A stretch of 64,000 bases of DNA from Klebsiella pneumoniae (GTDB taxonomy: Bacteria > Pseudomonadota > Gammaproteobacteria > Burkholderiales > UBA3065): NCBI GenBank assembly GCA_945897555.1, contig CAMDGF010000001.1:54866-118865 (forward strand), given 5' to 3'. Position 1 is the first letter of the stretch; each line of letters starts with the position of its first letter. The position numbers were made by a program, and so were the translations under genes. The notes beneath the pieces are model-generated. The model made no database searches. It had not been told where the DNA came from and worked only from the letters and a program-made list of their open reading frames with translations. Positions 5,407 to 64,000 of this stretch are shown piece after piece.

Positions 5407-6956
5407 GCATCACCGTCTACGTCCCCTGCGACTCGAGCGCACTTTCGCTCGGCGCCGAGAAAACAGCCACCGCCATCGCTGCCGAAGCCGCCCGTCGCGG
5501 TGCCGACATCCGCATCGTGCGCAATGGCTCGCGCGGCCTGTTCTGGCTCGAGCCGATGGTCGAGGTCGAGACCCCGGCCGGCCGCGTCGCCTACGGCCCG
5601 GTACAGCCCAAAGACGTGTCGGGCCTCTTCGAAGCCGGCTTCCTCACCGGCGGCAAGCACGCCCTATCGCTGGGCTTGACCGAAGGCATCGCCTACCTGA
5701 AGAACCAAGAGCGTCTCACCGCCGCTCGCGTCGGTTTGGGCGACCCGCTCTGCCTCGACACCTACGCCGCGCACGGCGGCTGGCAGGGCCTCAAGAACGC
5801 AGTGGCCATGTCCGGCGCCGACGTCGTCAAGGAAGTCACCGAATCCGGCCTGCGCGGCCGCGGCGGCGCGGCCTTCCCCACCGGCATCAAGTGGAACACC
5901 GTGCTCAACACCCCGGGCACGCAGAAGTACGTGGTCTGCAACGCCGACGAGGGTGACTCGGGCACCTTCTCCGACCGCATGCTGATGGAAGGCGACCCTT
6001 ACACCCTGGTCGAAGGCATGACCATCGCCGGTGTGGCGGTAGGTGCCACTCAGGGTTACATCTACCTGCGCTCGGAATACCCTCACGCCTTCAAGACGCT
6101 GCAAGAAGCCATCCGCCGCGCCCGCGAGGCCGGCTGGCTGGGCACTGATGTGGCCGGCTCGGGCAAGACCTTCGAGCTCGAGGTGCGGCTGGGTGCCGGC
6201 GCCTACATCTGCGGTGAAGAGACCAGCCTGCTGGAGAGCCTCGAGGGCAAACGCGGCATCGTCCGCTTCAAGCCGCCGCTGCCGGCCATCGAGGGCCTGT
6301 TCGGCAAGCCCACCGTCATCAACAACGTCATCTCCCTGTGCTCGGTGCCGGTGATCCTGGCCAAGGGCGGCAAGCACTATCAGGACTTCGGCATGGGCCG
6401 TTCGCGCGGCACCCTGCCCTTCCAGCTCACCGGCAACATCAAGCATGGCGGCTTGGTCGAGAAAGCGTTCGGCCTCACGCTCAACCAGCTGCTTTACGAC
6501 TACGGCGGCGGTTCTGCCACCGGTCGGCCGATCCGCGCCGTGCAAGTGGGTGGCCCGCTGGGCGCTTACGTCCCCGAGTCGCAGTTCGACCTGCCGCTCG
6601 ACTACGAAGCTTTCAGCAAGGTCAACGCGATGATCGGCCACGGCGGCGTGGTGGTGTTCGACGACGCCGTCGATATGGCGGCGCAGGCGCGTTACGCCAT
6701 GGAGTTCTGCGCCATCGAATCGTGCGGCAAGTGCACGCCTTGCCGCATCGGCTCGACGCGCGGCACCGAGGTGATGGACAAGATCATCCAAGGTATCGAT
6801 GTCGAGGCCAATATCGCGCTGATGCGCTCGCTGTGCGACACCATGCTCAATGGCTCGCTGTGCGCGCTCGGCGGCATGGCGCCCTACCCCGTCCTGTCTG
6901 CGCTCAACCATTTCCCCGAGGACTTCGTGCGTGTGCACGAGGCCGCGGCTGCCTGA
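5403..6956 (+). CDS. fdsB: NAD-dependent formate dehydrogenase beta subunit (NuoF-like, FMN/NAD/4Fe-4S)
   Basis: 517 aa. GLRGRGGAAFPTG and ESCGKCTPCR motifs. ATGA overlap with fdsG. Confidence 0.9.
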   Translation: MSITVYVPCDSSALSLGAEKTATAIAAEAARRGADIRIVRNGSRGLFWLEPMVEVETPAGRVAYGPVQPKDVSGLFEAGFLTGGKHALSLGLTEGIAYLKNQERLTAARVGLGDPLCLDTYAAHGGWQGLKNAVAMSGADVVKEVTESGLRGRGGAAFPTGIKWNTVLNTPGTQKYVVCNADEGDSGTFSDRMLMEGDPYTLVEGMTIAGVAVGATQGYIYLRSEYPHAFKTLQEAIRRAREAGWLGTDVAGSGKTFELEVRLGAGAYICGEETSLLESLEGKRGIVRFKPPLPAIEGLFGKPTVINNVISLCSVPVILAKGGKHYQDFGMGRSRGTLPFQLTGNIKHGGLVEKAFGLTLNQLLYDYGGGSATGRPIRAVQVGGPLGAYVPESQFDLPLDYEAFSKVNAMIGHGGVVVFDDAVDMAAQARYAMEFCAIESCGKCTPCRIGSTRGTEVMDKIIQGIDVEANIALMRSLCDTMLNGSLCALGGMAPYPVLSALNHFPEDFVRVHEAAAA

Positions 6957-6966
6957 GGAGGCTCCC

Positions 6967-40973: not shown

Positions 40974-43310
40974 TTACTTGTCGGTCATCACCCAGACACC
41001 GTCCCACTCACCCTCCGGCGGGGTGGCTTTAAGCAGCTCGCAGCGCTCGATGTAGGTCTTGCTGAGCTTGTCCTTGGGGTTGTACGAAAGCGCTTTCTCG
41101 AAAGCGGCAACGGCATCGTCCCAACGGCCTGCCCGGTAGCGCGCAAGGCCTTCGGTGAAGTTGCCGAGCACGTCCATCATGTTGGGGAAGCTGTCGGGTG
41201 TGTGGTAGTCCAGCACCTCGTAGATGCTCACCGGCTGGGTCTTGCCCTTCACCACCACCAGATCGACCTCGCGCATGCGGTAGATGCCGCGCAGCTTGGC
41301 CTGCGTGAACTCGGAGATGAGGATCTTGGCCGAATACTGCTTGCAAGCGGATTCGAGACGAGCCGCAAGGTTGACGCCATCCCCGATGACGGTGAAGTCC
41401 ATGCGCTTCTTGGAGCCGATGTTGCCGCTCACCACCACATCGGTGTTGAGGCCGATGCCGATGTGGACGGGCAGCTTGCCCTCGGACTCGCGCACGACGT
41501 TCCACTCGTTGAGCTCACGGATCATCCACACCGAGGCGCGCACGGCCCGATCCTCGTCGTCGTCGTGCGCCAGCGGGATGCCAAAGCCCGCCATGATGGC
41601 GTCGCCGATGAACTTGTCGAGCATGCCACCCTCGCGGGTGATGCAGTCGACCATGATCTCAAAGTACTCGTTGAGCAGCGTCACCGTGGCCTGCGGCCCG
41701 AGCGCCTCGGTGAGCGTGGTGAAGCCGCGGATGTCGGAGAAGAGCAAGGTGGCGACCACGCTCTGCCCGCCCATCGCCTCGCCACCCTTGGCCATCAGCT
41801 GATCGGCGATGGCCGGGTCGACGTAGCGCGACATGGTCGACTTCATCCGCTTCTCGGACGAGATGTCTTCAAACATGACCATGGTGCCGAGGTGCCCGCC
41901 TTCGACGTTGGTCAGAGGCAGGATCGTTGTGTTCACCGAGACGTGCTCACCCTCGATGGTCATTTCAGCGTCCATGGTGATGTCTGGCTCGGATTCCGCG
42001 GTGAGCTTGCGCGCCTTCTCCATCACCCACGCATTGGCCTCGGTAAAGATCTCCTCGGCCTTGCGGCCGATGATGTCTTCGACACGCTGCTTGAGGATCT
42101 TCGATCCGGCGCTGTTGCAGGTGACCACCTTCTCGGTCTCATCCAGCGTGATCACGCCGTTGCTCATCGACTCGAGCATCGACTCGTTGTAGTTCTTCAT
42201 GTTCTGCACGTCGGCGAACAAGCTGGCGTTCTCCAGCGAGATCGCGATCTGCGCAGTGAATGCCTTGAGTCGGGATTCATCTTCGCCAGTGAAGACACCG
42301 TTCTTCTTGTTCAGCACCTGGGTGACGCCGATCACCTTGCCCTTCTGGTTGATGATCGGCACACAGAGGATGCTGCGGGTGAAGAACCCCGACTTCTTGT
42401 CGAATGCCGGGTTGAAGCGCAGGTCGGCGTAGGCGTGCGGGATGTTGATGGTCTTGCCGCTGCTGAACACCGCTCCGGCGATGCCCGCGGTGTTGGGCAG
42501 GCGGATCTGCATCGAGCCGAGCCCCTGCCCGACCTGCGACCACAAGGTCTGCGTCTTTTCGTCGTTGAGGAACAGCGTGCTGCGCTCGGCGTTGAGCATG
42601 CGCGTCGCCTCGGTCATCACCTTGTTGAGCAGCGAGTCGATCTTGATGTCGGAGGTGAGGTCGCTCACCACCTCGAGGAACTCGAGTTCCTGCTCACGGA
42701 TGCGTTTCATCCGCTCGACCAGCGCCATGCTCTCGAGGCCGAGCGCGCCCTGCGTGGTGATGGCCGCGAACAGTTCCTGATCCTGCTTGGTGAACTTGCC
42801 GATCTTCTTGTTCAGCGCCTGCGCAACACCGATGAGCTCGCCCTTGGCGTTGCGGATGGGCACACAGAGGATGCTTTGCGTCTTGTAGCCGGTGCGCTGA
42901 TCGACCGAGCTGTCAAAGCGCTTGTCCTTGTAGGCGTCGTGGATGATCGCCGGCTCGCCGTTATGGTAGACCCAGCCGGCGACACCACGGTCGTTCATCA
43001 GGCGGATCTCCTGCGTCAGGTTGCCCTGCGCGACCCGGCTGTAAAGCTCGTTGGTGGCCGGGTCGTTGAGGAACAGCGTGCTGCGATCGGCCTCCAGCTG
43101 TTCGGTGCTGACCTCGACCAGCAAGTGCAGGATCTGGTCGAGCGAGTCCATCGCCGCGACCTTCTCGGAGATCGACAGCAGCAGCCGCAGCAGGCTCTCC
43201 TGCCAGGTCTTGCCAACCATCGCCACCGAATAGGCGGACGAGTGTGCCGACTTGGCGGCAGGGGTCCGACTACGCGTCTTGGGGGTGCTTGGGGGCTTGG
43301 TCGTGGTCAT
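40974..43310 (-). CDS. GAF-GAF-PAS class III adenylate/guanylate cyclase with a C-terminal TPR-like tail
   Basis: 778 aa. Cyclase core FSDIRGFTTLTE...DKFIGDAIMAGFG...GDGVNLAARLES. Confidence 0.85.
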   Translation of the reverse strand: MTTTKPPSTPKTRSRTPAAKSAHSSAYSVAMVGKTWQESLLRLLLSISEKVAAMDSLDQILHLLVEVSTEQLEADRSTLFLNDPATNELYSRVAQGNLTQEIRLMNDRGVAGWVYHNGEPAIIHDAYKDKRFDSSVDQRTGYKTQSILCVPIRNAKGELIGVAQALNKKIGKFTKQDQELFAAITTQGALGLESMALVERMKRIREQELEFLEVVSDLTSDIKIDSLLNKVMTEATRMLNAERSTLFLNDEKTQTLWSQVGQGLGSMQIRLPNTAGIAGAVFSSGKTINIPHAYADLRFNPAFDKKSGFFTRSILCVPIINQKGKVIGVTQVLNKKNGVFTGEDESRLKAFTAQIAISLENASLFADVQNMKNYNESMLESMSNGVITLDETEKVVTCNSAGSKILKQRVEDIIGRKAEEIFTEANAWVMEKARKLTAESEPDITMDAEMTIEGEHVSVNTTILPLTNVEGGHLGTMVMFEDISSEKRMKSTMSRYVDPAIADQLMAKGGEAMGGQSVVATLLFSDIRGFTTLTEALGPQATVTLLNEYFEIMVDCITREGGMLDKFIGDAIMAGFGIPLAHDDDEDRAVRASVWMIRELNEWNVVRESEGKLPVHIGIGLNTDVVVSGNIGSKKRMDFTVIGDGVNLAARLESACKQYSAKILISEFTQAKLRGIYRMREVDLVVVKGKTQPVSIYEVLDYHTPDSFPNMMDVLGNFTEGLARYRAGRWDDAVAAFEKALSYNPKDKLSKTYIERCELLKATPPEGEWDGVWVMTDK

Positions 43311-44987: not shown

Positions 44988-46133
44988 CTACTCCTCTTCG
45001 GCGACCGGTGCTGGCGCATAGCCGGTCTCCCAGTCTGGTAGACCGACCTTCACCAGCGCCGGATCGGGTCGAGGATGGTTCGATGGGAGCGTGCGAACCT
45101 CGCCACTGGTATCGACACCGCCGCGCCGCCAGAACTCCGGCCAGTCGCTTTTCATGGTCACGCCATAAAGTGGCTTGTAGGTCCCTTTGTGGCAGGTGGC
45201 GCATGCCACCTTTGGGCCATCACCCTCGGCGCTGAGGCGGTAGTCGGGAAACAAGCCCTGCAGCGGCATGAGGTAATTGACGTTGAGGCTGCGCACCATG
45301 CGGATGCCATACCAAGCGGTGATGCGCTGTGGCGAACTCTGTTCCCACCGCGCCAGCGCGCGGGTGTTGTGGCAATAGTCGCAGTTCACCCCGAGCGACT
45401 TGGCCATGTAGATCATCAGCCCGTAGGTGTGCTCGGCCTTCTTCACCGACGTCGGGTTCGACCCGGCCAGCGGTTGCGTACCCTGCACGCGGATACTGCC
45501 CGGATCGGCCGACATGAGAAAGGTGGTGAGCGGATCGTTGGGCAAGGATGAGTTGCCGACCGTCGCCACGCCGGGTTCGTCTTGGCCATCGCGGTTGCCG
45601 AGCATACGCACCTGCTGCACTGGCCGCGAGAACCAATCGCCGCTGGGCACTGCCTGGCCGCGGTGGCAGGTCCAGCAGGTGACGCCCGTCGACCCGACGT
45701 GCTGGGTCCACTCATTGTTGATCGTGCGCGTCATCTGCAGCATTCGCCGTGCCACGACCTTGGTGTATTTCTCATCGGAGGCCATGTTCTTGGTGTTATG
45801 GCAGTAGACACAGCCTTCTTCGGGCGCCACCCAAGTGACGAACGCGGCCATCACTCGTGACAACTCGTTGACGCTGAGGTCCTGGAGAACCTGGATGTTC
45901 TTGTAGCGCTCGGTGATGGTGGGTTGGCCGATGATCGGCGGGTCTGCCGGATCCTCGGGCTCAGGGATGGCGTTGACTGGCCTGAGCGCATCGACCGCAG
46001 CGGGCTTGTACATCTGCACCAACCCGGTGCCGCGAAAGCCACTCTGCACCGGTTGTGTGGATTCGGTGAGCAGGTAGGCGAAGAACAGCACGCCGACAAA
46101 GGCAGCTGCGATTGCGGCAAAGACGCGGACCAT
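44988..46133 (-). CDS. pufC: photosynthetic reaction-centre tetraheme cytochrome c subunit family protein (PufC-like), N-terminal membrane anchor
   Basis: Start at MVRVFAAIAAAFVGVLFF, preceded by AAGGAGGAGA. Four CxxCH motifs (CVYCH, CWTCH, CDYCH, CATCH) with RC-cytochrome-type spacing and the FVTWVAPEEGCVYCHN motif. Confidence 0.85.
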   Translation of the reverse strand: MVRVFAAIAAAFVGVLFFAYLLTESTQPVQSGFRGTGLVQMYKPAAVDALRPVNAIPEPEDPADPPIIGQPTITERYKNIQVLQDLSVNELSRVMAAFVTWVAPEEGCVYCHNTKNMASDEKYTKVVARRMLQMTRTINNEWTQHVGSTGVTCWTCHRGQAVPSGDWFSRPVQQVRMLGNRDGQDEPGVATVGNSSLPNDPLTTFLMSADPGSIRVQGTQPLAGSNPTSVKKAEHTYGLMIYMAKSLGVNCDYCHNTRALARWEQSSPQRITAWYGIRMVRSLNVNYLMPLQGLFPDYRLSAEGDGPKVACATCHKGTYKPLYGVTMKSDWPEFWRRGGVDTSGEVRTLPSNHPRPDPALVKVGLPDWETGYAPAPVAEEE

Positions 46134-46191
46134 CTCTCCTCCTTGCCCGCCCGGATGCACGGCGGATCTGATCGGGCCTGAGTGGCCTCTA

Positions 46192-46243: not shown

Positions 46244-46271
46244 AAAAAGAAGGGCCTCATGCCGAGGCCCC
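46244..46271 (-). terminator. rho-independent terminator after the HiPIP gene
   Basis: The minus strand reads GGGGCCTCGGCATGAGGCCC followed by TTCTTTTT. Confidence 0.7.
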
Positions 46272-46298: not shown

Positions 46299-46616
46299 TC
46301 AGGCGTTCTTGACGGCCTTGAAGTTCTTGCACCAGCCGCCGGCCGGGGTGTGACGCTCAAAGAACGAGCATTCGGCGTACTCATCGCCCGCCTTGCCCGC
46401 CCACAACTGGCACTTGCTGCATTGCTGTTCAGCGGTCCAGCGCTTGTACTTGGCCTTGTCGACCTCCTCGGTCTTGAGCTTGAAACCCATCGATTTGGCG
46501 TACGGGTCGGCTTCGGACAGCTTCTCGCTGGCGGCCTGGGCGACCTGCGGCAGCAGGCTCGCAGCAGCCACGCCGGCCACTGCCTTGATCATGAAGGTTC
46601 TGCGGGACTGCTTCAT
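46299..46616 (-). CDS. high-potential iron-sulfur protein (HiPIP), Tat signal
   Basis: 105 aa. Twin-arginine SRRTFM. Four Cys in HiPIP spacing (CSKC...C...GGWC). Confidence 0.9.
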   Translation of the reverse strand: MKQSRRTFMIKAVAGVAAASLLPQVAQAASEKLSEADPYAKSMGFKLKTEEVDKAKYKRWTAEQQCSKCQLWAGKAGDEYAECSFFERHTPAGGWCKNFKAVKNA

Positions 46617-46664: not shown

Positions 46665-47273
46665 TCAGGGCCGCGGCGCGCGCACCAGCGACACACCCTC
46701 GGCACGACGGACCAGTCGCACATGAAGACGCTCGCCAGGCCTGCCGATGCGCACGCCGTCGCCACCGAAACTGAGTGCAAAGGCCGCCAGCTCGGGGCCC
46801 TCCACCAGCCTGCGCGAAGCGCTCCAGTAAAAACCCTCTGCGGTCGCCGGGAACGCATCGAGGTTGATCCGCGGGTCGCGGCAATTCACCTCGCTGATGC
46901 TCGCCAGCTCGCGCAGATTGGGAAGGCGCCAATCGGCATAGAAGAGATCGCCACGGTCGTTGACGTCGCGCACCCAAGCCTCTGCCGCAGCCCAGTCGAG
47001 GTCGGCTGGCAGGCCTCGGCAAACAGAATCACGCCACATCTGTCCGGCTGAACACCTCGCCCAGTGAAGCCCGGTGCGCCGGTCAGTCAGAGTGCCGTCG
47101 CCATGGTCCTCGAAATCGGCCAAAGTCGAACTAGGAATGAACTGTTCGCTGCAGGTTTGCGCTGCAACACCGGCCGGGTGCAAACACCCGGCCAGGCACA
47201 GCCACACAACGCCAAACCAGCTACTTGGTGTCAAAACCGATGCCCGACGGCTTGGACGGGAAGCCCTTGCCAT
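46665..47273 (-). CDS. DUF1566 (Lcl C-terminal domain) lipoprotein
   Basis: Lipobox LAGC after a hydrophobic stretch. DWRLPNLRELASI motif typical of DUF1566. The 5' end overlaps the cytochrome gene by up to 53 nt, so the start is uncertain. Confidence 0.65.
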   Translation of the reverse strand: MARASRPSRRASVLTPSSWFGVVWLCLAGCLHPAGVAAQTCSEQFIPSSTLADFEDHGDGTLTDRRTGLHWARCSAGQMWRDSVCRGLPADLDWAAAEAWVRDVNDRGDLFYADWRLPNLRELASISEVNCRDPRINLDAFPATAEGFYWSASRRLVEGPELAAFALSFGGDGVRIGRPGERLHVRLVRRAEGVSLVRAPRP

Positions 47274-47730
47274 ACTTGACCGGGATCGGTTTGGTCTGCT
47301 GAGCAGCCAAGCCCGGCTGGATCGGCAGGCCTCGATGCAGGTTCATAGCGTAGGCGTACATCGCCGTCATGTCCTTGCTCTCAAGCCCCAAGGCCTTACC
47401 TGCCTGCGGGTTCTGGATGCACCAGTTCACCATCTCGCCCCATTGCACCACCCGGTTCATGTTCTGGATGTACTTCGGGAAGGTCTGCGGGTTGGAAGCG
47501 CCCGCATCGGGATGGCAGTTGCCGCAAGCCAGACCGTTGCTGGTCATGTCAGGGTTGGACCCGTGCCAGAGGTTGTAGCCCAACTCGACCAACTCCAGCA
47601 GCTTGGCGTTCTGCTCGTCCAACTCCGCCTTGCCGAAAGGCTCACGGGCCTGGGCAGCACCGGAGGCCAACGCTGCCATCACGGCAGCGGGAATGGCGAG
47701 GGCAAGTGTTCTTTTGAATGTCGCTCTCAT
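47221..47730 (-). CDS. periplasmic monoheme c-type cytochrome
   Basis: 169 aa. Sec signal ending AAQA, a single CGNCH, then FPKY...VNWCIQNP. Confidence 0.8.
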   Translation of the reverse strand: MRATFKRTLALAIPAAVMAALASGAAQAREPFGKAELDEQNAKLLELVELGYNLWHGSNPDMTSNGLACGNCHPDAGASNPQTFPKYIQNMNRVVQWGEMVNWCIQNPQAGKALGLESKDMTAMYAYAMNLHRGLPIQPGLAAQQTKPIPVKYGKGFPSKPSGIGFDTK

Positions 47731-47747
47731 GTCGGTGTGCTCCGTGA

Positions 47748-48758
47748 TCAGGCCTTGAGGCCCTTCTTGAGGAAGGGGGTCAGAGAGTCGGCGAAGGGCT
47801 GGTACTCGACCAGCTTGCTACCGCCGGCCTTGACGTTCACCGCCAGCGTGCCCATGCCATCGACCTCGTTCCCTGGGTCGGCGCGGTTCATCTGCGAACC
47901 GGGATAGGCCAACTTGACCGGCGGATAAGGCCAAGGCCACGAGGTGCTCATGGCGCCGATCGAGGTCATGTTGCCGATCTTGTTGTAGAGCGTCTGGTGC
48001 ACATGGCCGTGGATCGAGGTGAAGTTCTCGAAGCGCGACAGGATCTCGCGGATCTGCGGACCGTCCACGGTCTGGAAATTCCAGCGCGGGTAGTAGTCCC
48101 ACAGGGGCGAGTGGGTAAAGGTGACGATGGGCGTGTCCGAGGAAAGCTTGGCGACGTCTTTCTTCAGCCAGTCCAGTTGCTCGGCACCCACCCCCCACAA
48201 GCCGCCGATCGGGCCTTCGAGCATCTCCATGGCTTCCATACGCTGGCGCGGGGACATCTGCTTGGCGGTCCAGAAATCCGGCACCAGGATGGAGTTCATG
48301 CCGATAAAGTGCACGCCCTTGTGGTCGAACGACCAGTAATCACGGCCGAACATGCCCTTCCACGCATCGCCCATGTCGACGTACCAGTCGTGTTCACCGG
48401 GGATGACCACCAGCTTGGTGTCGAGAGCAGCCAGCAGCTTCTTGCCCTTGGCGAGCTGATCCTCGGTACCGTTCTGGGCGATGTCGCCACCGTAAAGCAC
48501 GAAGTCTGGCTTGATCGCCATGTTGTTGACCTGCTCGACGGCATCCTCGAGCTGGCGATCGAACTTGTGGTCCTCGCCGCTGTAGAGGTGCGAATCGGTG
48601 ATCATTGCGAAACGGAACGGCGAGACCTTCTTGCCCGGCTGGGCGTGGGCCAGGTCGAATACGCCGAGGTTGATGCCCGCAGCGCTGCCGACGATGGTCG
48701 ACAGCCCGGCCTTGCCGGTGAGCTGCAGGAATTCGCGTCTGTCCTTCTTGTGATCCAT
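47748..48758 (-). CDS. Tat-exported calcineurin-type metallophosphoesterase
   Basis: Start at MDHKKDRREFLQ (twin-arginine motif), preceded by AAGGAGA. Motifs DSH, GGD, GEHD, THSP and HGHVH. Confidence 0.8.
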   Translation of the reverse strand: MDHKKDRREFLQLTGKAGLSTIVGSAAGINLGVFDLAHAQPGKKVSPFRFAMITDSHLYSGEDHKFDRQLEDAVEQVNNMAIKPDFVLYGGDIAQNGTEDQLAKGKKLLAALDTKLVVIPGEHDWYVDMGDAWKGMFGRDYWSFDHKGVHFIGMNSILVPDFWTAKQMSPRQRMEAMEMLEGPIGGLWGVGAEQLDWLKKDVAKLSSDTPIVTFTHSPLWDYYPRWNFQTVDGPQIREILSRFENFTSIHGHVHQTLYNKIGNMTSIGAMSTSWPWPYPPVKLAYPGSQMNRADPGNEVDGMGTLAVNVKAGGSKLVEYQPFADSLTPFLKKGLKA

Positions 48759-48865
48759 AACCTTCTCTCCTTGATTCCTCACGTCGTTCTTTTAAAAAAA
48801 CCATGCCCCGGTGGACGAAAAGGCCTGTTGTTATGGTTTTGAAGGGGGTGTGTACCCTAAGGGTC

Positions 48866-48941
48866 GTTCCGTGGCCTATGGAACATAGGTTAGCAATTTC
48901 ATATTGTCCATAAGAGATTGATTCCAATGCGATTCTGGAAT
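48866..48941. promoter_or_regulatory. two dyad-symmetric elements in the divergent soxY / metallophosphoesterase control region
   Basis: GTTCC-N9-GGAAC at 48866-48884 and ATTCCA-N9-TGGAAT at 48921-48941, inside an AT-richer 297-bp intergenic region. Confidence 0.25.
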
Positions 48942-49055
48942 GCGTCTAGACACAAGGGCCGAGCGACTCCCCGTCAAGCGGGCTCGACGACTGGTCTGGG
49001 AACGGCAACCGCAGGAACTGCCTCCAACCCTGACACGACAAAGGCTTGCCAGACG

Positions 49056-49529
49056 ATGTCTGCCCTCTCTTCTGCCGCAACGAGCGCCTCCCGCCGCCGC
49101 GCGCTGCAAATCCTCGCCACGCTGGCGGGTGCCATCGGTGCCGCTTGGGCATCCGCCGCTCTGGCCGGACTGCCTCGGCGCAGCTTTGAGCCCGAACCGT
49201 TCGACGTGGCTCTGCGCAAGCTGGGCGTCACCGCGGCCGAGCCCTCTTCGGCGATCGAGTTGCTGCTGCCCGACGTCGCTGAGGACGGCGCCGCTGTGCA
49301 GATGAGCCTGAGCACCACGTTGGCGGCCCGCCGCGCCCTTTTGCTGGTGCGGCGTAACCGCATACCCCTGGTGGCTGAATTCGCGTTCCCGCCCGGCGCG
49401 CTGCCATTCGTCGCCACGCGCATCAAGTTGGCCGAAGATTCCGAGGTGCTGGCCTTGGTCGAAGCCGACGGACGTTGGTATTCAGCCAGCCGCCAGGTCA
49501 AAGTGACGCTGGGGGGTTGCGGTGGTTAG
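49056..49529 (+). CDS. soxY: sulfur carrier protein SoxY (Tat signal, C-terminal GGCGG)
   Basis: Start at MSALSSAATSASRRRALQ. PDVAEDGAAV motif. The protein ends ...VKVTLGGCGG. Confidence 0.85.
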   Translation: MSALSSAATSASRRRALQILATLAGAIGAAWASAALAGLPRRSFEPEPFDVALRKLGVTAAEPSSAIELLLPDVAEDGAAVQMSLSTTLAARRALLLVRRNRIPLVAEFAFPPGALPFVATRIKLAEDSEVLALVEADGRWYSASRQVKVTLGGCGG

Positions 49530-49537
49530 GGGGCGAT

Positions 49538-49849
49538 ATGCCTGAAGCGATGCGCATCCGCGCGGTGGAAAAAGACGGGCTGGTGGATGCTCGGGTGCAG
49601 ATCCGTCACGACATGGAGTCGGGCTCGCGCCGAAACGAGTCTGGCGAGGTGGTGCCAGCCTGGTACATCACCGGATTCACGGTGGAGGTGGACGGGCGCG
49701 AGGTGTTCGCCGCGCAACTCGGTCCCGGTGTGTCGCGCAATCCGCTGCTGCACTTTCGCTTCAGGGACGCCCGCAAGGGCCAGATGTTGGTGGCGCGCTG
49801 GCAGGACAGCCGTGGCGAGACGCGCGAAGACCGGGGGGTTATCGATTGA
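49538..49849 (+). CDS. soxZ: SoxZ, partner of SoxY
   Basis: 103 aa starting 8 nt after soxY. IRHDMESGSRRNESGEVVPAWYI matches the SoxZ signature H-x-M-E-(S/T)-G. Confidence 0.85.
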   Translation: MPEAMRIRAVEKDGLVDARVQIRHDMESGSRRNESGEVVPAWYITGFTVEVDGREVFAAQLGPGVSRNPLLHFRFRDARKGQMLVARWQDSRGETREDRGVID

Positions 49850-50591
49850 CCGGCTCGAAGCGCGCGCCGACCACGATGCCAAGCTCGTAAAGGATCCACA
49901 GAGGGATGGCCATCATCAGCTGCGAGATGACATCCGGCGGAGTAAAGATGGCGCCGATGACAAAGGCACCGACGATGACGTAAGGCCGCCACTCGCGCAG
50001 CTTGGCCGGTGTGACGATGCCAGCCGCGATGAGCACCACCACCAGCACCGGCACCTCGAAAGTCACGCCAAAAGCGATGAACAATCCCAGCACGAAGTCG
50101 AAGTAAGCGGCGATGTCGGTCATCACCGCCACGCCCTCGGGCGCAAAGCCGGTGATGAAGCCGAACACCATGGGCAACACGGCGTAATAGGCGAACGCCA
50201 TGCCGACGAAGAACAGCAGCGTACTGGCCACCACCAGTGGCCCCACCCAGCGCTTCTCGTGGGCATACAAGCCTGGCGCCACGAACGCCCAGACCTGGTA
50301 GAGCACCCAGGGCAAGGCGACCAGCAGAGCCGCCAGCCCGGTGACCTTCACCGGCACAAAGAATGGAGTGACCACACCGGTGGCGATCATGCTGGTGCCT
50401 GCCGGCATCTTGGCCAGCAAGGGTTGCGCCAGCCAGGTGTAGAGATCCTGCGCGAAAGGGAACAGGCAAACGAACACCACCAACAGGCCCACCACGCCAC
50501 GCAGCAGTCGGCTGCGCAACTCGATGAGGTGCTCCACCAGCGACATCTCCTGCGGGACGGCATCCGCCCCCGATGGCAGCGGATCGGTCAT
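49839..50591 (-). CDS. tatC: twin-arginine translocase subunit TatC
   Basis: 250-aa, six-TM protein (SLVEHLIELRSRLL). The 3' end overlaps the soxZ 3' end by 11 nt. Confidence 0.9.
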   Translation of the reverse strand: MTDPLPSGADAVPQEMSLVEHLIELRSRLLRGVVGLLVVFVCLFPFAQDLYTWLAQPLLAKMPAGTSMIATGVVTPFFVPVKVTGLAALLVALPWVLYQVWAFVAPGLYAHEKRWVGPLVVASTLLFFVGMAFAYYAVLPMVFGFITGFAPEGVAVMTDIAAYFDFVLGLFIAFGVTFEVPVLVVVLIAAGIVTPAKLREWRPYVIVGAFVIGAIFTPPDVISQLMMAIPLWILYELGIVVGARFEPVNR

Positions 50592-51067
50592 GTCGAGGTC
50601 GTCACGGTGCGCTTGCGGCCGCGCGGGGCGCCCGTCTTGGAGGACGCAGTGGCCGCCTCGGGGGCCGCGCCGGCGTCCGGTGTCGCCAGCGGAGCAGCCT
50701 CCTTGCGCGGTGCGCGCCGTTTGGGTTTGACCGGCGCATCGACCGGGGCCGGTGGAACAGAGGCTCCGGGCAAGGGCAAGGCGACGTCATCGAGTGTCGA
50801 GCGGACAGCGTCCTCGGCGGACGCGACGATGCTATCGGCCTCACCCGACACCTCGCGCGCCCGCGCCTCGATCTCGTCGCGCAAACGCCGCAACTCGGAC
50901 AGCTCGACCTCGCGGTCGATCTCGTCGCGCACGTGGTCGATAAAGCGCCGCGCCCGGCCGACCCAACGGCCGACGTCGCGCGCCAGTTTGGGCAGACGTT
51001 CAGGGCCGAGCACCAACAGCGCAGCCACGCCGATGACGAGCAGCTCGCTGAAGCCGATGTCGAACAT
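50588..51067 (-). CDS. tatB: twin-arginine translocase subunit TatB
   Basis: MFDIGFSELLVIGVAALLVLGPERLP. ATGA overlap with tatC. Confidence 0.9.
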   Translation of the reverse strand: MFDIGFSELLVIGVAALLVLGPERLPKLARDVGRWVGRARRFIDHVRDEIDREVELSELRRLRDEIEARAREVSGEADSIVASAEDAVRSTLDDVALPLPGASVPPAPVDAPVKPKRRAPRKEAAPLATPDAGAAPEAATASSKTGAPRGRKRTVTTST

Positions 51068-51081
51068 GCCGCGGCGCGCGG

Positions 51082-51300
51082 CTAGTGCTGGCCGGGCCTG
51101 CCGTCGGTGCGGCGCGACTCCCCTTCGAGGGTGCGCTCGGCCGGCGGGGCATCAGGCGGATCGCCCTCACTTACGCCTTTCTTGAAGCCCTTCACCGCCT
51201 CGCCGAGGTCGGTGCCGACGCCCCGCAGCTTCTTGGTGCCGAACACCAGCACGATGACCAGCAGGACGATAAGCCAATGCCAGATGCTGAAAGAACCCAT
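51082..51300 (-). CDS. tatA: twin-arginine translocase subunit TatA
   Basis: 72 aa ([25 protein letters not shown]). Confidence 0.9.
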
Positions 51301-59846: not shown

Positions 59847-60932
59847 TCACCACACCGGCTCGAGGCGCGGGTCGGCGGGCAGCTCGCGCGAGCGCACCGG
59901 AAGGAAGTACATGCGGACGAAGGTCGCGGCGGCACCCAGCGCAAGACCGGCGCGGCGCACTTGGTTCCACGGTCCACCCACCCTGCGCGCCTCGTCCATC
60001 GCCTCGGCGATCAGGCGCATCTTCTCCAGCCCGGCGCGGAAGCGTGCGTCTTCGAAGTTGAGCGTATCCGGGAACACCTGTTGTGAGATCTCCCGGGTGA
60101 CGCGGAACACCTCCATGTCGTATTCGGTCGGATCGAGCCCGAGCGACTTGTGGAACACCGGCCGCGCGTGGTCACGCACATACATGGTGGCGAACACCGC
60201 CAGGGTAAAGAAGCGGATCCAGAGGCGGTTGAGGCCACGGGTCAGGCTCGGGTCCGCGCGCATCAGCAGGGCGAACGCCTCGCCATGCCGGAACTCATCG
60301 TTGCACCACTCGCGGAACCACCGGAAGATCGGGTGGAAGCACAGCTCAGGGTGCCGTTCGATCTTTCGGTAGATGGTGATGTAACGCGCGTAGCCGATCT
60401 TCTCCGAAAGGTAGGTCGCGTAGAAGATGTACTTGGGCTTGAAGTAGGTGTACTTCTTGGCCTTGACCAGAAAGCCCAGATCGACCCCGATACCGAAATC
60501 CTTGAGCCACTGGTTGATGAAACCGGCGTGGCGCGATTCGTCGCGCGCCATGTAACCGAACAGGTCCTTCATGTCGGGGTTCTTGACCCGCCGACGGATC
60601 TCGGCGTAGAGCACACAGCCAGAGAACTCCGCCGTGACCGAACTGATCATGAAATCAACGAATTCCTGATAGAGCTCGTCGGGCAAGTGCGAGTAGTCCT
60701 GCCCGAGCATGTCGACCGGCCGCTCGAAGTGGCCGTTGTTGGGGTCGTCCCTGAACTCGGCCATCAGCGCATCCCACTGCTCGCGGATCGAACCGATGTC
60801 GATGCGGTCCATGGCGTCGAAATCGGTGGTGTAGAAACGCGGATCGAGGATGGTGTTCTTCTGCGCCTGGCGCGTCGAATCGTTGATGCTCTCAGGCGTC
60901 TCGAGCTGGCGGGTCTCGGTCATGGCGTTCAT
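59847..60932 (-). CDS. acsF: aerobic Mg-protoporphyrin IX monomethyl ester oxidative cyclase
   Basis: Start at MNAMTETRQ (361 aa). Two di-iron E..E/D-x-x-H motifs (DESRH, DEFRH). Confidence 0.92.
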
Positions 60933-61303
60933 GGCTGCTGGCCTCCGTTGGGCACGCTGGACACGGCGTTGGATGGTCGTGCGGCCTTGGGCCGCGGATA
61001 GTTGCGTGAGGTTGAGAAGCGGCGCTCGGAGAAGCTCACCTCGTAGAGCAGGTCGAGTTCGAAACGGGCGAGGGCAAAGGTCTTGAGGCGCTGCCACCAC
61101 GATGCACGCGAAACCGTGGCACGACGTTCAACCGCGTAACGCTCACCCCAGTTGATGCGGGTGGGCGGGTTATGCACCAGCACCTCGTCGCCAGGGCCGA
61201 TCTCGACCCCTTTGAGGATGACGTGCGCGTAGCAGTCGTCGGCGGTATGCGCCAACTCGACACGACATGGCACTGTGGATACGCGAGGGTCACGGTCGCT
61301 CAT
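60929..61303 (-). CDS. small conserved-position ORF between puhC and acsF (124 aa), function unknown
   Basis: ATGA overlaps at both ends (with the puhC stop and the acsF start). GC-rich third codon positions. Confidence 0.65.
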
Positions 61304-61869
61304 CGCGCGGCCTTTGCAACGTGCGCCCCAGGCTGCGGCTCGACCAGCATCCGCGCGAACGCGCCGGCATTGGTGTGGCCGAAGGCTGTGAGTTCGACGC
61401 GCTGCCCGGTGGCCAGGTCGGTGAGCACGAGCAGACCGGCGTCGAGCGAGAGCTGGAAGGGCTCGGCCACACCCTTGCCAAGCCGCCGACGCTCACGCGC
61501 CATGCCACGCAGGATGCCGCGGATGAAACCGGCCTCACCGACCACGCGATACACCTCGATGCCGCTGTCGGCATCGAGCACACGGACCGATTTGTCCCCG
61601 GCGTCGAGAAAGCGCAACTTGCGCTGGCCGACGGTCTTGAGCACCGGTGGATCTACGGTGGCGACGGTCATCGGCACGCTTGCAGAAGCCAGCGTCGCCC
61701 CCCCAGCACTGTGAAGCTGCAGACCCAGCCAGAAACCGAGCGCGGGAAGGACGACGACCGCTGCCACCAGCCAGAGTGGCATCACCCTGACGATCGGATA
61801 GCGCGCGGCGAGGCGCGAACGCCAGCCACCGTTCGCGTCCACGCCCGCAGCAGCGGCCAGGCGCGTCAT
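61300..61869 (-). CDS. puhC: photosynthetic complex assembly protein PuhC
   Basis: ATG at 61869 overlaps the puhB stop. One TM helix, then LRFLDAGDKSVRVLDADSG..GFIRGILRGMARERR, typical of PuhC. An alternative ATG lies at 61782. Confidence 0.7.
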   Translation of the reverse strand: MTRLAAAAGVDANGGWRSRLAARYPIVRVMPLWLVAAVVVLPALGFWLGLQLHSAGGATLASASVPMTVATVDPPVLKTVGQRKLRFLDAGDKSVRVLDADSGIEVYRVVGEAGFIRGILRGMARERRRLGKGVAEPFQLSLDAGLLVLTDLATGQRVELTAFGHTNAGAFARMLVEPQPGAHVAKAAR

Positions 61870-62564
61870 GCCGGTTCTGCCCCGGCCAGAGCGTCGCCGG
61901 TGCCGCGCTTTGGCCTGACCGTCGCGGCCGCTCGGGCCGGCGCGGCTGCTGAGCGTTGCTGCACGACCGACCACGCTTGCCCGAGCAGCGTCGCCACCCG
62001 GCTGGCGTCTGGCAGACAGCGCAGCGCCGGCTCGGGTTGGGTGATGCGCCACGGGCGCGCATGTGGCCACAGGTGCGGGTAGGCGATGCGCTGGCCATCG
62101 GTCAGACGCAGACAGATGTCCCCGGCACCCTGCGCCTGCTGGCGCAGATCGGCTGCGGCCACCTGGCGCAAAGGGATGTTGTAAGTGATACCCAGCACCA
62201 TGCCGATGCGCATCACCACTCGCTTGTCAGTGAGCGTGTACAGCGTGGTGCGCGAGACCGCGACGGCCAGCCCGAAGAGCATGGCCAGCCCGATCAGCGG
62301 CAAGGGCGCGATCTTGAGTGTGGCGATGAGTGCCTCTATCGGGGTCGCGCCATCATGCCAATCCGCGATCAGCTTCCATGCCAGCAGAAGGCCGAAGTAG
62401 GCTGCAACGGCACGGACATGGAAGACTTCGCGCGCCACCAGCCCGATGTCGGGCGCACCCTGCCACAACAGGGTCTCACCGGCCGGAAGTCGCTCTGGCA
62501 GCCCGGGCTCGGGCTCCCAGCCATGCTCGGGGCCGGAGAAATGCTTGTGGTCGAGCCCGCTCAA
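61866..62564 (-). CDS. puhB: photosynthetic complex assembly protein PuhB
   Basis: LPAGETLLWQGAPD motif and two TM helices. The proposed TTG start at 62564 overlaps the puhA stop (TTGA). Start uncertain. Confidence 0.7.
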   Translation of the reverse strand: MSGLDHKHFSGPEHGWEPEPGLPERLPAGETLLWQGAPDIGLVAREVFHVRAVAAYFGLLLAWKLIADWHDGATPIEALIATLKIAPLPLIGLAMLFGLAVAVSRTTLYTLTDKRVVMRIGMVLGITYNIPLRQVAAADLRQQAQGAGDICLRLTDGQRIAYPHLWPHARPWRITQPEPALRCLPDASRVATLLGQAWSVVQQRSAAAPARAAATVRPKRGTGDALAGAEPA

Positions 62565-63328
62565 ATCAGCGGCTCCGCACGGCCCGGCTCGGCGTAGAGC
62601 AGACCACCGCCGAGGTAACCGAAGATCTTTTCCTCTTCGAGCCAAGTGACCTGATCCGGGCTGGCAGTGCGGGGGATGCCGGCGATCTGGCCGCCGAGCA
62701 CAGCACGCACCGTGACACGGTCGCGCTCGACCCGGCACAGGGTCATCGGCACCAGCACGCGATGGCCACCGGCATCGATCTCGACGTAGCGGAACAGGTG
62801 CTCCGAGCGATCGACCCAGAGGTCGGTCACCTTGCCACCCACCACGCCGTCGGCGCCCACCACGTCAAAGCCACGCGGGTCGGTCTCGCCATGATCGATG
62901 GCAAAGCCCTCTGGCTCGGCGACGCGCAAGGGCACGATGCGGACCGCGCCCTCGTAGGTGGTGTCAGGGCGATCGGCACGGGCTGTCCAGGCGCCAGGGC
63001 CGATACCGTCGTACATCGGGTTACCGGTCGGCTCGATCGGTGCGCCGGCAAAGCCTGCGATCGGCTCTGCTGCCGGTGCCGGCTGCTCCCAGTCACGCAT
63101 GTGCGGCGCGAGGTACTCGCTGCCATCCTGCATGACATAGCGCTTGGGCTTGGGCATGGCGATGATGCCGGGGTCTCGGCGACCATTGCGCAGGCCCGAA
63201 TCGAGGGGAAAGCCTTCGCGCTTGCTCTCGTAGATCAGGTAATAGCAGAGGCCAAAAAAGAACACCCAGAACATGTAGATGGCCAGTTGGGCCACATCGA
63301 AGTAGCCGAGGATCGCTCCGTTTCCCAT
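62561..63328 (-). CDS. puhA: photosynthetic reaction centre H subunit
   Basis: 255 aa (FDVAQLAIYMFWVFFFGLCYYLIYESKREGFPL). Confidence 0.92.
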   Translation of the reverse strand: MGNGAILGYFDVAQLAIYMFWVFFFGLCYYLIYESKREGFPLDSGLRNGRRDPGIIAMPKPKRYVMQDGSEYLAPHMRDWEQPAPAAEPIAGFAGAPIEPTGNPMYDGIGPGAWTARADRPDTTYEGAVRIVPLRVAEPEGFAIDHGETDPRGFDVVGADGVVGGKVTDLWVDRSEHLFRYVEIDAGGHRVLVPMTLCRVERDRVTVRAVLGGQIAGIPRTASPDQVTWLEEEKIFGYLGGGLLYAEPGRAEPLI

Positions 63329-63350
63329 TTGTCTTCTCCTTGTCTGCCGG

Positions 63351-64000
63351 TCAGCCGGGGAATTCAGCCAGACCGAACTTGCCTACTGCGGGGGCCCCCT
63401 CCGCCCGGCGACTCCGCACCAGGGGACCGATGACGATCAAACCGCCGAACAAAAGCAACAACTCGAGGCCGTAGACCGTGCCATAGCCGGTCGACGGGTG
63501 ATCCATGGCCTCGCCCAGCACACCCGTGGTGGCGACCGCCGAGACCCAGTCGCGCAGGGCGCCACCGATGGCGATGGCAAGCCCCATGCAGGTCGCTTGC
63601 ACTGCGCCCCAGGCACCCAGAGCCATGCCGGTCAGGCCGTTCTCCTCAAGGCCCATCGCCGCGGTGAGTGTGCCGACCGAGAACAGCCCACCACCGAAGC
63701 CGATGAGCACCACACCCAGCCGGAACAAGGCCGGCGAGTCGAGCGGATCGGCAAAGATGACCGCGGCGAACGCCCACAGGCCACACACCAGGCCGAGGGC
63801 GGCGATGCGATGCGCGTTCACCGAAGCGGCAAGCATGCGCGCAGCCGCCATGAACGCCACCAATGCGCCACCAGCCATGAGCGCCGTGAGCGCCGATGTG
63901 GCCCCGACCGAAAGGCCGAGGACCTCCGCGCCATAGGGCTCAAGCACGATGTCCTGCATATTGAAAGCAGCGGTGCCAAGGCCCAGGGCGACGAGGAAAC
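63351..64000 (-). CDS. lhaA: LhaA/PucC-family MFS protein (LH1 assembly), C-terminal part; runs off the window
   Basis: Multi-TM C-terminal half directly upstream of puhA. The reading frame stays open to the window edge. Confidence 0.8.
   Translation of the reverse strand, partial: FLVALGLGTAAFNMQDIVLEPYGAEVLGLSVGATSALTALMAGGALVAFMAAARMLAASVNAHRIAALGLVCGLWAFAAVIFADPLDSPALFRLGVVLIGFGGGLFSVGTLTAAMGLEENGLTGMALGAWGAVQATCMGLAIAIGGALRDWVSAVATTGVLGEAMDHPSTGYGTVYGLELLLLFGGLIVIGPLVRSRRAEGAPAVGKFGLAEFPG

Follow-up and report, generated by a model that had tools for sequence, protein, structure and literature searches.

The presence of soxY and soxZ beside a small Tat-exported metallophosphoesterase (MPE) and a monohaem cytochrome raises the question of whether these genes carry out the work of SoxXA and SoxB with different enzymes. 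The original suggestion was that the MPE could be an analogue of SoxB and the cytochrome an analogue of SoxXA, together forming a minimal two-enzyme cycle. The genes of the window, that is, the whole 64-kb stretch of DNA analysed, were checked by ORF listing and by Pfam and NCBIfam scans; soxY, soxZ, the MPE (Tat-exported, with GEHD in the place of GNHD) and the cytochrome were found where they had been placed (Table 1), and the spacings of 17 nt between the MPE and cytochrome genes and of 297 bp between soxY and the MPE gene were confirmed. When canonical SoxA, SoxX, SoxB, SoxC and SoxD were searched for in the window by tblastn with two independent protein sets, no match was obtained except a weak one of SoxA on the cytochrome gene itself, in agreement with the earlier claim that soxB, soxX, soxA and soxCD are absent from the 64 kb. 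The genes had thus been located correctly, but the unit was incomplete, since the Lcl_C, HiPIP and PufC genes, downstream of the cytochrome gene and on the same strand, also belong to the one conserved cluster. Alternative starts are available for the MPE (in-frame GTG at 48782, giving 344 aa) and for PufC (at 46160), and the public gene call for the Lcl_C protein is 180 aa. The DNA comes from a phototroph: the genes puhA, lhaA and acsF are found 11–15 kb away.

Table 1. Features of the cluster and its surroundings, in window coordinates.
Feature	Coordinates	Strand	Evidence and remarks
PufC-type tetrahaem cytochrome, N-terminal membrane anchor	44988-46133	-	PF02276, E 3e-120; NF040706
Promoter-like site upstream of PufC gene	46228-46201		Consensus match
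Terminator-like hairpin in HiPIP/PufC gap	46251-46271	-	9-bp stem and T run; consensus match; such sites no more numerous than in shuffled sequence
HiPIP with Tat signal	46299-46616	-	PF01355
DUF1566/Lcl_C-domain protein, secreted, ~180 aa, conserved cysteines	46665-47207	-	PF07603, E 2.7e-24
Monohaem cytochrome, 169 aa	47221-47730	-	Single CxxCH (CGNCH); PF21342
MPE, 336 aa from ATG	47748-48758	-	PF00149, E 3.8e-11
Divergent MPE/soxY intergenic region, 297 bp	48759-49055	.	ORF listing
Sigma-70-like site in MPE/soxY spacer	48910-48882	-	Consensus match only
soxY, divergent from MPE gene; Tat-type RRR signal, C-terminus GGCGG	49056-49529	+	PF13501
soxZ	49538-49849	+	PF08770; TIGR04490

The conservation of the cluster was evaluated in a synteny survey of 80 species-level genomes, with counts restricted to loci with room. 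In other species, the cytochrome gene came after the MPE gene at every one of the 75 informative loci, the two being separated by between a few nt and a few tens of nt, and the Lcl_C gene came after the cytochrome gene in 71 of the 71 loci with room. In hundreds of species the MPE and cytochrome genes occur obligately as a pair, far more consistently than chance would allow. The core has a third invariant gene, that of Lcl_C, for which the PDB offered no informative relative. The null hypothesis, a phosphoesterase unrelated to its neighbours and adjacent by accident, is effectively excluded. The two-enzyme cycle is unproven. The unit consists of at least three invariant genes. Among the 60 loci with at least 4 kb of room, HiPIP was found in 49 and PufC in 48 (~80%). 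The window PufC scored 415 bits with NF040706 (cut-off 150) and contains four CxxCH motifs; it is a putative reaction-centre cytochrome. In Thiocapsa, the cluster copy of PufC is fused to an OmpA-like domain. The order MPE, cytochrome, Lcl_C spans Burkholderiales, Chromatiaceae, Gallionellaceae, Sedimenticolaceae and Steroidobacteraceae, and the cluster was found in 467 of 185,579 species-level genomes, including Limnohabitans and Polynucleobacter (abundant lake bacterioplankton), purple sulfur bacteria and Gallionellaceae, the last with the three core genes only, lacking soxYZ, HiPIP and PufC. Even where MPE relatives share 30–40% identity, a SoxA/TsdA-type cytochrome gene is still next (four of four informative distant relatives), and in one case a GEHD-type MPE at 30% identity carries a c-haem domain within the same polypeptide. 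The distant pairs adjoin genes for CCP/MauG/RoxA-like dihaem proteins, which hints at a different chemistry in that part of the family.

Besides its Tat motif, DRREFLQ, the MPE displays DSH, GGD, GEHD, H216 and HGHVH, and all seven canonical metal-ligand positions are occupied (D55, H57, D92, E122 replacing Asn, H216, H250 and H252). In the profile alignment with GpdQ, the Asn of IPGNHD is matched by the Glu of GEHD, which is invariant in the core MPE family and at least 90% conserved down to ~30% identity. The catalytic His is intact and the family is under strong constraint. The homologue search gave 3959 proteins, 62–95% identical among the matches listed. The RR motif of the Tat signal does not vary, in keeping with export after assembly of the metal site, as for SoxB. 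The best Foldseek matches of the AF2 model (pLDDT 84) were GpdQ (TM 0.75) and Rv0805 (TM 0.81), GpdQ being also the best sequence match (E 4e-15), with identity to GpdQ/Rv0805/CpdA-type enzymes of only ~17%, whereas 5'-nucleotidases ranked just 45–46. The MPE therefore shares fold and metal-ligand arrangement with the class III phosphodiesterases (GpdQ of Enterobacter aerogenes, Rv0805, CpdA/Icc), but differs from them in being Tat-exported and paired with a cytochrome, in GEHD and in a C-terminal region, peculiar to this family, that contains STSWPWPYPP. Scores of 46 bits with the NCBIfam CpdA model NF008359 (cut-off 225) and 29.8 bits with NF050112 (cut-off 400) were obtained, and the protein falls far short of equivalog level for both CpdA and SpdA. 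The proposed comparison with SoxB and the phosphodiesterases thus placed GpdQ and Rv0805 nearest, yet with a missed CpdA cut-off and an invariant GEHD.

A SoxB-type enzyme by sequence or profile was ruled out. The alignment of two SoxB sequences with the MPE family profile (hhalign) was limited to the Tat signal, with a probability of 2%; no SoxB match was found among PDB sequences at E≤1; and Pfam matched the 336-aa MPE to PF00149 only, the C-terminal 5'-nucleotidase domain PF02872 being absent. SoxB proteins are ~560–580 aa, and the canonical ones at loci L091 and L094 (576–583 aa) contain PF02872. What survives of the suggested kinship is Tat export, an intact binuclear metal site and membership of the calcineurin-like superfamily of metallohydrolases; since the MPE resembles GpdQ and Rv0805 and not SoxB, a SoxB-like role would be by analogy.

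The cytochrome was matched by PF21342 (E 1.6e-11, 44.4 bits, cut-off 27), and its score with the SoxA model TIGR04484 (40.9 bits) was below the cut-off of 110. In profile matches its closest solved relatives were the N-domain of SoxA (1h31, 2c1d) and the catalytic domain of TsdA (4wq7), with which it aligns equally well, and these two families provided the only significant matches (E≤0.01) among solved structures. Only the N-terminal TsdA domain (chain residues 40–134) aligns, and Cys104 of the cytochrome falls on the haem-ligating, catalytic Cys96 of TsdA. The CxxCH motif and Cys104 are invariant, the Cys being kept even in the distant MPE-cytochrome pairs, and Cys104 is the predicted distal haem ligand. 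Cys-ligated c-haems of the SoxA/TsdA type are best known from sulfur enzymes, and JGI pipelines label the cytochrome "thiosulfate dehydrogenase". The protein resembles Sox in being a SoxA-family c-haem protein with a predicted Cys ligand, but it is a single 169-aa domain without a SoxX; with TsdA it shares the catalytic-domain fold, the His/Cys haem-ligand position and a co-encoded HiPIP, TsdA using HiPIP or TsdB as acceptor. In contrast to the one haem found here, TsdA (~250 aa) is a dihaem protein, with a catalytic His/Cys haem and an electron-transfer haem, and it has no metallohydrolase partner, Lcl_C or SoxYZ. Its family and Cys104 support the comparison with SoxXA; its SoxA score is below threshold, and no SoxX was found in the window. 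According to PMC6879331, conjugation of thiosulfate to the haem-ligand cysteinate is the proposed common first step of SoxAX and TsdA, and TsdA of A. vinosum has HiPIP as its natural partner. The HiPIP of the cluster is accordingly the predicted electron acceptor of the cytochrome.

The association with SoxYZ proved looser. The window SoxY matched PF13501 and ends in GGCGG, with 118.9 bits on TIGR04488 ("true GGCGG", cut-off 125), and SoxZ scored 94 bits with TIGR04490, above the cut-off of 76. Co-occurrence with soxYZ was observed in 24 of the 60 loci, and more than half of the clusters (36 of 60) have none nearby. In 23 loci of Gamma- and Betaproteobacteria a dedicated SoxYZ paralogue lies inside the cluster; its SoxY (97–119 bits with TIGR04488 in other taxa) forms a clade of its own with a mostly shortened arm, ending in GGC and one residue instead of GGCGG, and in GGCGA in two loci. 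In the SoxY tree the window SoxY belongs to a separate clade, and its close relatives are confined to the same lineage and synteny. A distinct SoxYZ clade beside the operon in this lineage indicates a second, independent recruitment. No soxYZ was found within 8 kb at locus L010, the MPE of which is 91% identical to that of the window. Thiocapsa bogorovii possesses canonical soxBXAK in addition to the cluster, as well as two more soxYZ pairs; with a full SoxBXAK and three SoxYZ pairs in total, thiosulfate use there can be explained without the module. The claim that these genes stand "instead of" soxB/soxXA is thus unproven, given the T. bogorovii genome and a window that covers only 64 kb of its own; the module adds to canonical Sox, and a replacement of Sox is not implied.

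Most likely, the cluster encodes a periplasmic sulfur-compound:HiPIP oxidoreductase, so far uncharacterised, that includes its own hydrolytic step. The chances are about even that the MPE, the cytochrome and Lcl_C are the invariant core of a periplasmic enzyme that oxidises an inorganic sulfur anion and delivers the electrons to a high-potential chain. The families of the partner proteins, the sole guide to the substrate, make thiosulfate most likely and sulfite possible. By homology with SoxAX and TsdA, the substrate would be conjugated oxidatively at the Cys104-ligated haem, yielding a cysteinyl -S-SO3(-) or -S-S-SO3(-) adduct and two electrons. As judged from the operon content and the known TsdA-HiPIP and HiPIP-PufC partnerships, these electrons would pass through HiPIP and PufC to the photosynthetic reaction centre, or, where HiPIP and PufC are absent, to another small cytochrome acting as carrier. 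The binuclear centre of the MPE might then, by analogy with SoxB, hydrolyse the sulfonate to sulfate, either still on the cytochrome cysteine or after its transfer to the SoxY-arm cysteine. SoxYZ would carry or accept the bound sulfur; where it is not nearby, a SoxYZ encoded at another genomic locus could serve, or no carrier may be required. Such a pathway would resemble Sox (SoxXA, SoxYZ and SoxB) in having all its components in the periplasm, in passing electrons to high-potential carriers and in the SoxY/SoxZ beside or inside the operon, although these are absent from most clusters; Lcl_C as invariant third partner sets it apart.

An unlikely alternative in terms of the same sulfur chemistry is a TsdA-like thiosulfate dehydrogenase that joins two thiosulfates to tetrathionate and passes the electrons to HiPIP, with the MPE as a tetrathionate or trithionate hydrolase; SoxYZ would then be no obligatory carrier, and its adjacency in the window a lineage-specific accident or a loose association. 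The equal resemblance of the cytochrome to the TsdA catalytic domain and SoxA, the JGI label, HiPIP as a known TsdA partner, the majority of clusters without soxYZ, the different clade of the window SoxY and the L010 locus are all consistent with this reading. TsdA, however, requires a second haem domain, whereas the cytochrome has one CxxCH in 169 aa, and the operons of 23 loci in two proteobacterial classes contain their own SoxYZ clade, its arm altered, which is hard to explain without a carrier; moreover, no MPE-type polythionate hydrolase is known.

It appears quite improbable that the binuclear site oxidises something other than a sulfur compound, for instance phosphite, arsenite or a similar phosphate-like oxyanion, or Fe(II)/Mn(II), while the cytochrome serves as electron outlet only. 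An MPE active site is suited to tetrahedral oxyanions, an unusual metal centre is suggested by the invariant replacement of Asn by Glu, the bare core occurs in iron-oxidising Gallionellaceae and dihaem proteins of the CCP/MauG type accompany the distant pairs; set against this are the significant solved matches of the cytochrome, which are to sulfur enzymes only, the Cys that is invariant even in the distant pairs and the recurrent SoxYZ linkage, and no MPE is known to act as an oxidoreductase. The slightest probability is assigned to the MPE being a conventional CpdA/GpdQ-like phosphodiesterase or phosphatase of the periplasm, or else just an accessory or maturation protein, whose redox linkage has no catalytic meaning: the nearest characterised relatives are indeed the phosphodiesterases GpdQ and Rv0805 and the public annotation is CpdA, but the CpdA score is far below its cut-off, GNHD is replaced by GEHD family-wide, and the synteny with a SoxA/TsdA-type cytochrome is 100% and persists to 30% identity.

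No description of the MPE-cytochrome-Lcl_C cluster was found in the searchable literature. On the preferred reading, a sulfur-oxidising core, a fuller statement can be made that is tenable but somewhat short of even probability: the core would conjugate thiosulfate or sulfite oxidatively and also carry out the hydrolysis that releases sulfate, with no need of SoxX, SoxB or a full-length SoxA. It would pass electrons straight to HiPIP and the reaction-centre cytochrome, and would represent a second, independently evolved solution to the SoxXA and SoxB steps, with a wide distribution among freshwater Burkholderiales, purple sulfur bacteria and Gallionellaceae. Current annotations of the cluster genes ("CpdA", "thiosulfate dehydrogenase", "hypothetical" and "reaction centre cytochrome") mean that sulfur-cycling potential deduced from metagenomes misses or misreads the cluster. 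External sulfite oxidation in purple sulfur bacteria needs SoxYZ but is not known to need SoxXA or SoxB, and the cluster might bear on this process. Should the module function in the proposed way, SoxXA would be replaceable by a single-domain Cys-ligated cytochrome, and the sulfate-releasing step of periplasmic sulfur oxidation would have evolved twice within the metallophosphoesterase superfamily.

The genes named in the original prediction (soxY, soxZ, a 336-aa Tat-exported metallophosphoesterase, MPE, and a 169-aa monohaem cytochrome) were found where it had placed them, with a 297-bp spacer between the divergent soxY and MPE genes and with MPE 17 nt upstream of the cytochrome gene. The predicted Asn to Glu replacement in the GNHD motif was borne out by a profile alignment with the glycerophosphodiesterase GpdQ, in which the Glu of GEHD stands opposite the Asn of GNHD. 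Two features had been missed, namely the affiliation of the cytochrome with the SoxA/TsdA family and the extension of the operon to a secreted DUF1566/Lcl_C-domain protein (Lcl_C), a HiPIP and a PufC-type cytochrome.

Features of the window, with coordinates on its forward strand
Feature	Position	Strand	Remarks
Molybdopterin oxidoreductase ORF	6850-9828	+	992 aa
GAF-GAF-PAS protein	40974-43310	-	778 aa; guanylate/adenylate cyclase domain
PufC-type cytochrome	44988-46133	-	tetrahaem; same operon as MPE
HiPIP	46299-46616	-	Tat signal; same operon
Lcl_C	46665-47207	-	secreted, DUF1566; operon continuation, same strand as MPE
Cytochrome	47221-47730	-	169 aa, single CxxCH
MPE	47748-48758	-	336 aa; twin-arginine signal DRREFLQ; motifs DSH, GGD, GEHD, H216, HGHVH
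soxY	49056-49529	+	C-terminus GGCGG
soxZ	49538-49849	+	
tatC, tatB, tatA	49839-51300	-	adjoin soxZ
acsF-like gene	59847-61100	-	rubrerythrin domain; edge of photosynthesis gene cluster (59847-63959)
puhA	62561-63328	-	edge of photosynthesis gene cluster
pucC/lhaA, truncated	63351-63959	-	edge of photosynthesis gene cluster

The position of the tat genes is specific to the window's lineage; three Tat substrates (SoxY, MPE and HiPIP) have their genes no more than 5 kb away. The gene for the GAF-GAF-PAS protein lies just past those for PufC and the adjacent OYE-type flavoprotein, a position kept throughout the lineage. The molybdopterin oxidoreductase ORF is unrelated to the MPE-cytochrome finding; molybdopterin, NADH-G 4Fe-4S and 2Fe-2S Pfam domains, detected in its part of the window by a batch scan that was not ORF-resolved, suggest a formate-dehydrogenase-like enzyme. 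In two loci of the same species from other metagenomes (L002 and L003, 3465-5239), a 376-aa opposite-strand ORF lacking a Pfam match takes the place of the N-terminal two thirds of dnaX; an insertion or an assembly error may account for this.

Homologues of the MPE were numerous (3959 detectable; 62-95% identity over full length among the matches listed), and a motif scan located the enzyme in 467 of 185,579 species-representative genomes, including Limnohabitans, Polynucleobacter, Hydrogenophaga, Rhizobacter, Rubrivivax, Thiocapsa, Thiohalocapsa, Halochromatium, Gallionella, Sedimenticolaceae and Steroidobacteraceae. Within the best 80 loci, the cytochrome gene directly followed that of the MPE in all 75 with enough sequence, and Lcl_C came next in order in 71 of 71. 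HiPIP, PufC and SoxYZ were encoded in 49, 48 and 24, respectively, of the 60 loci that extend at least 4 kb downstream, the commonest full order being MPE-cytochrome-Lcl_C-SoxY-SoxZ-HiPIP-PufC, which Thiocapsa marina displays as a clean seven-gene unit with unrelated flanks. Gallionellaceae clusters consist of the three core genes only, and in one locus (L084) a class I cytochrome c gene occupies the place of HiPIP. Upstream, 37 of the 80 loci have a divergent LysR gene, a candidate regulator. A PDB sequence search with Lcl_C returned no informative match.

The pair is older than the core MPE family and extends to MPE relatives at 30-40% identity, all of which have a Tat signal and nearly all GEHD. 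A cytochrome of Pfam family PF21342 immediately followed these distant enzymes in all four cases with enough contig, and CxxCHP, PxTFPK and the WC motif were retained. Given this pairing and the synteny in all 75 informative loci, the null hypothesis, chance proximity of an unrelated esterase, was set aside. Upstream of some distant pairs stand CCP_MauG- or RoxA-like dihaem genes instead of HiPIP and PufC (L096, 4667-7832; L100, 1-2138), and in this branch the reaction may have another electron partner or even run in another direction. Three apparent fusions were also encountered. Two MPE-cytochrome proteins (P0235 and P0286) were excluded as probable products of frameshifted gene calls in metagenomes; the only plausible one, P0234 (metagenomic, 399 aa, 30% identity), combines a GEHD-type MPE with a C-terminal CxxCH domain and may be a natural hydrolase/c-haem fusion with a haem domain of a different type.

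The nearest solved relatives of the MPE by sequence were GpdQ and Rv0805. An AF2 model built from 14 close homologues was unusable (pLDDT 59), and one including distant representatives was adequate (pLDDT 84); a fold search with the latter returned the same top relatives (GpdQ, E 4e-15; Rv0805, TM 0.81), followed by purple acid phosphatases, with 5'-nucleotidases at rank 45-46. Since hhalign against SoxB aligned nothing except the Tat signal and the C-terminal domain of SoxB is missing, the MPE cannot usefully be called a SoxB homologue, and any SoxB-like role would be one of analogy. Identity as a normal CpdA was likewise rejected, as the protein is exported, widely misses the equivalog cut-offs and has an invariant Glu for the metal-ligand Asn. 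With the catalytic His and all seven metal-ligand positions intact, a hydrolytic binuclear centre is the most economical reading of the sequence.

The cytochrome matches the Pfam SoxA/TsdA cytochrome domain PF21342, and the best solved relatives of a 14-orthologue profile were the SoxA N-terminal domain (1h31, 2c1d) and the TsdA catalytic domain (4wq7). Its invariant Cys104 aligned with Cys96 of TsdA, the distal ligand of the catalytic haem, whose thiosulfonation is the proposed common first step in SoxAX and TsdA (PMC6879331). In core-family cytochromes, the haem domain is followed by some 30 conserved C-terminal residues (Q-T-x-P..V..G.GF..PSGIG.D; alignments A3 and A6), a tail that the distant pairs lack and that may serve for docking to Lcl_C, HiPIP or MPE.

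The MPE proved syntenic with soxYZ elsewhere. The SoxY of the window belongs to a different clade from those encoded in these other clusters. SoxY proteins encoded inside the clusters form one clade in the SoxY tree, score 97-119 bits against the cut-off of 125 of the 'true SoxY' model and end mostly in GGC plus one residue (A, V, S, G or R), or in GGCGA in two loci, compared with the canonical GGCGG. In the MPE tree, in-cluster SoxYZ is scattered over several clades and missing in such close relatives as Thiocapsa sp. KS1, Halochromatium and Rubrivivax, a distribution that suggests ancestral presence followed by repeated loss. Membership of this clade was rejected for the window's SoxY, which forms its own clade and ends in GGCGG. 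Its close relatives all occur in one lineage-specific synteny beside tatABC, with identical flanking genes, and thus provide no independent synteny evidence; the next relative (50% identity) sits in a canonical soxYZAXB cluster. A locus with a 91% identical MPE (L010) has no soxYZ within 8 kb. The adjacency in the window is therefore a separate, recent event that counts as a second recruitment of SoxYZ beside the operon; taken alone, it carries less weight than the in-cluster cases.

No soxA, soxX, soxB, soxC or soxD was found within the 64-kb window by tblastn with two independent canonical query sets (proteins from loci L091 and L094). The idea that the MPE and cytochrome stand instead of soxB and soxXA is nevertheless unsupported, since absence from 64 kb says little and the cluster coexists with canonical sox genes in Thiocapsa bogorovii. 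In this organism, which has the cluster in the LT988_21265-21295 region, SoxY (LT988_21280) is annotated as hypothetical, SoxZ is 21285, and 21295 carries the label 'reaction centre cytochrome c subunit'. Its genome also encodes soxBXAK, two more soxYZ pairs and a second soxAX; these genes are listed in the genome paper, which does not recognize the cluster as such (PMC10892978).

The presence of puhA, the pucC/lhaA fragment and the acsF-like gene indicates that the source organism, represented by a betaproteobacterial MAG (GCA_040399105.1), is an anoxygenic phototroph. No pufM lies in the 64-kb window, and the cluster PufC may be the organism's real reaction-centre cytochrome. Its interpretation as a mere marker of the puf operon was rejected, since only 5 of 80 loci have a pufM within 8 kb. 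In Thiocapsa marina (L040, 11852-14863), the PufC-type cytochrome is part of a 1003-aa protein with an OmpA-like peptidoglycan-binding domain at its C-terminus, the two being joined by a linker of about 450 aa, and similar long ORFs occur in other Thiocapsa and in Thiohalocapsa loci; such a fusion would be a cell-wall-anchored paralogue and not a reaction-centre-bound subunit.

From the family assignments, conserved residues and gene linkage observed, we infer each chemical step of a proposed pathway. As in SoxAX and TsdA, the Cys-ligated haem would be the site at which thiosulfate, possibly sulfite, is oxidatively conjugated, with electrons leaving through HiPIP, the known partner of TsdA (PMC6879331), to PufC and the reaction centre. 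The MPE would then hydrolyse the sulfonate off a cysteinyl adduct, which may still sit on the cytochrome or may first have been passed on to the SoxY arm. A TsdA-like thiosulfate dehydrogenase working with a polythionate hydrolase, for which SoxYZ is not obligatory, is an unlikely alternative reading of the same genes. Oxidation of a non-sulfur substrate at the binuclear site of the MPE is suggested by the core-only form in Gallionellaceae and by the CCP/MauG/RoxA-like genes adjoining distant pairs, and is considered improbable. That the MPE is an ordinary phosphoesterase or an accessory factor appears very improbable.

No account of an MPE with a SoxA/TsdA-type cytochrome as its partner turned up in full-text searches of the literature, and public annotations of the cluster genes read 'CpdA', 'thiosulfate dehydrogenase', 'cytochrome C' or 'hypothetical'. 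The cluster is well supported as a genomic entity, and its putative chemistry would be a form of Sox/TsdA-like sulfur oxidation in which both the hydrolase partner and the invariant third subunit are new.
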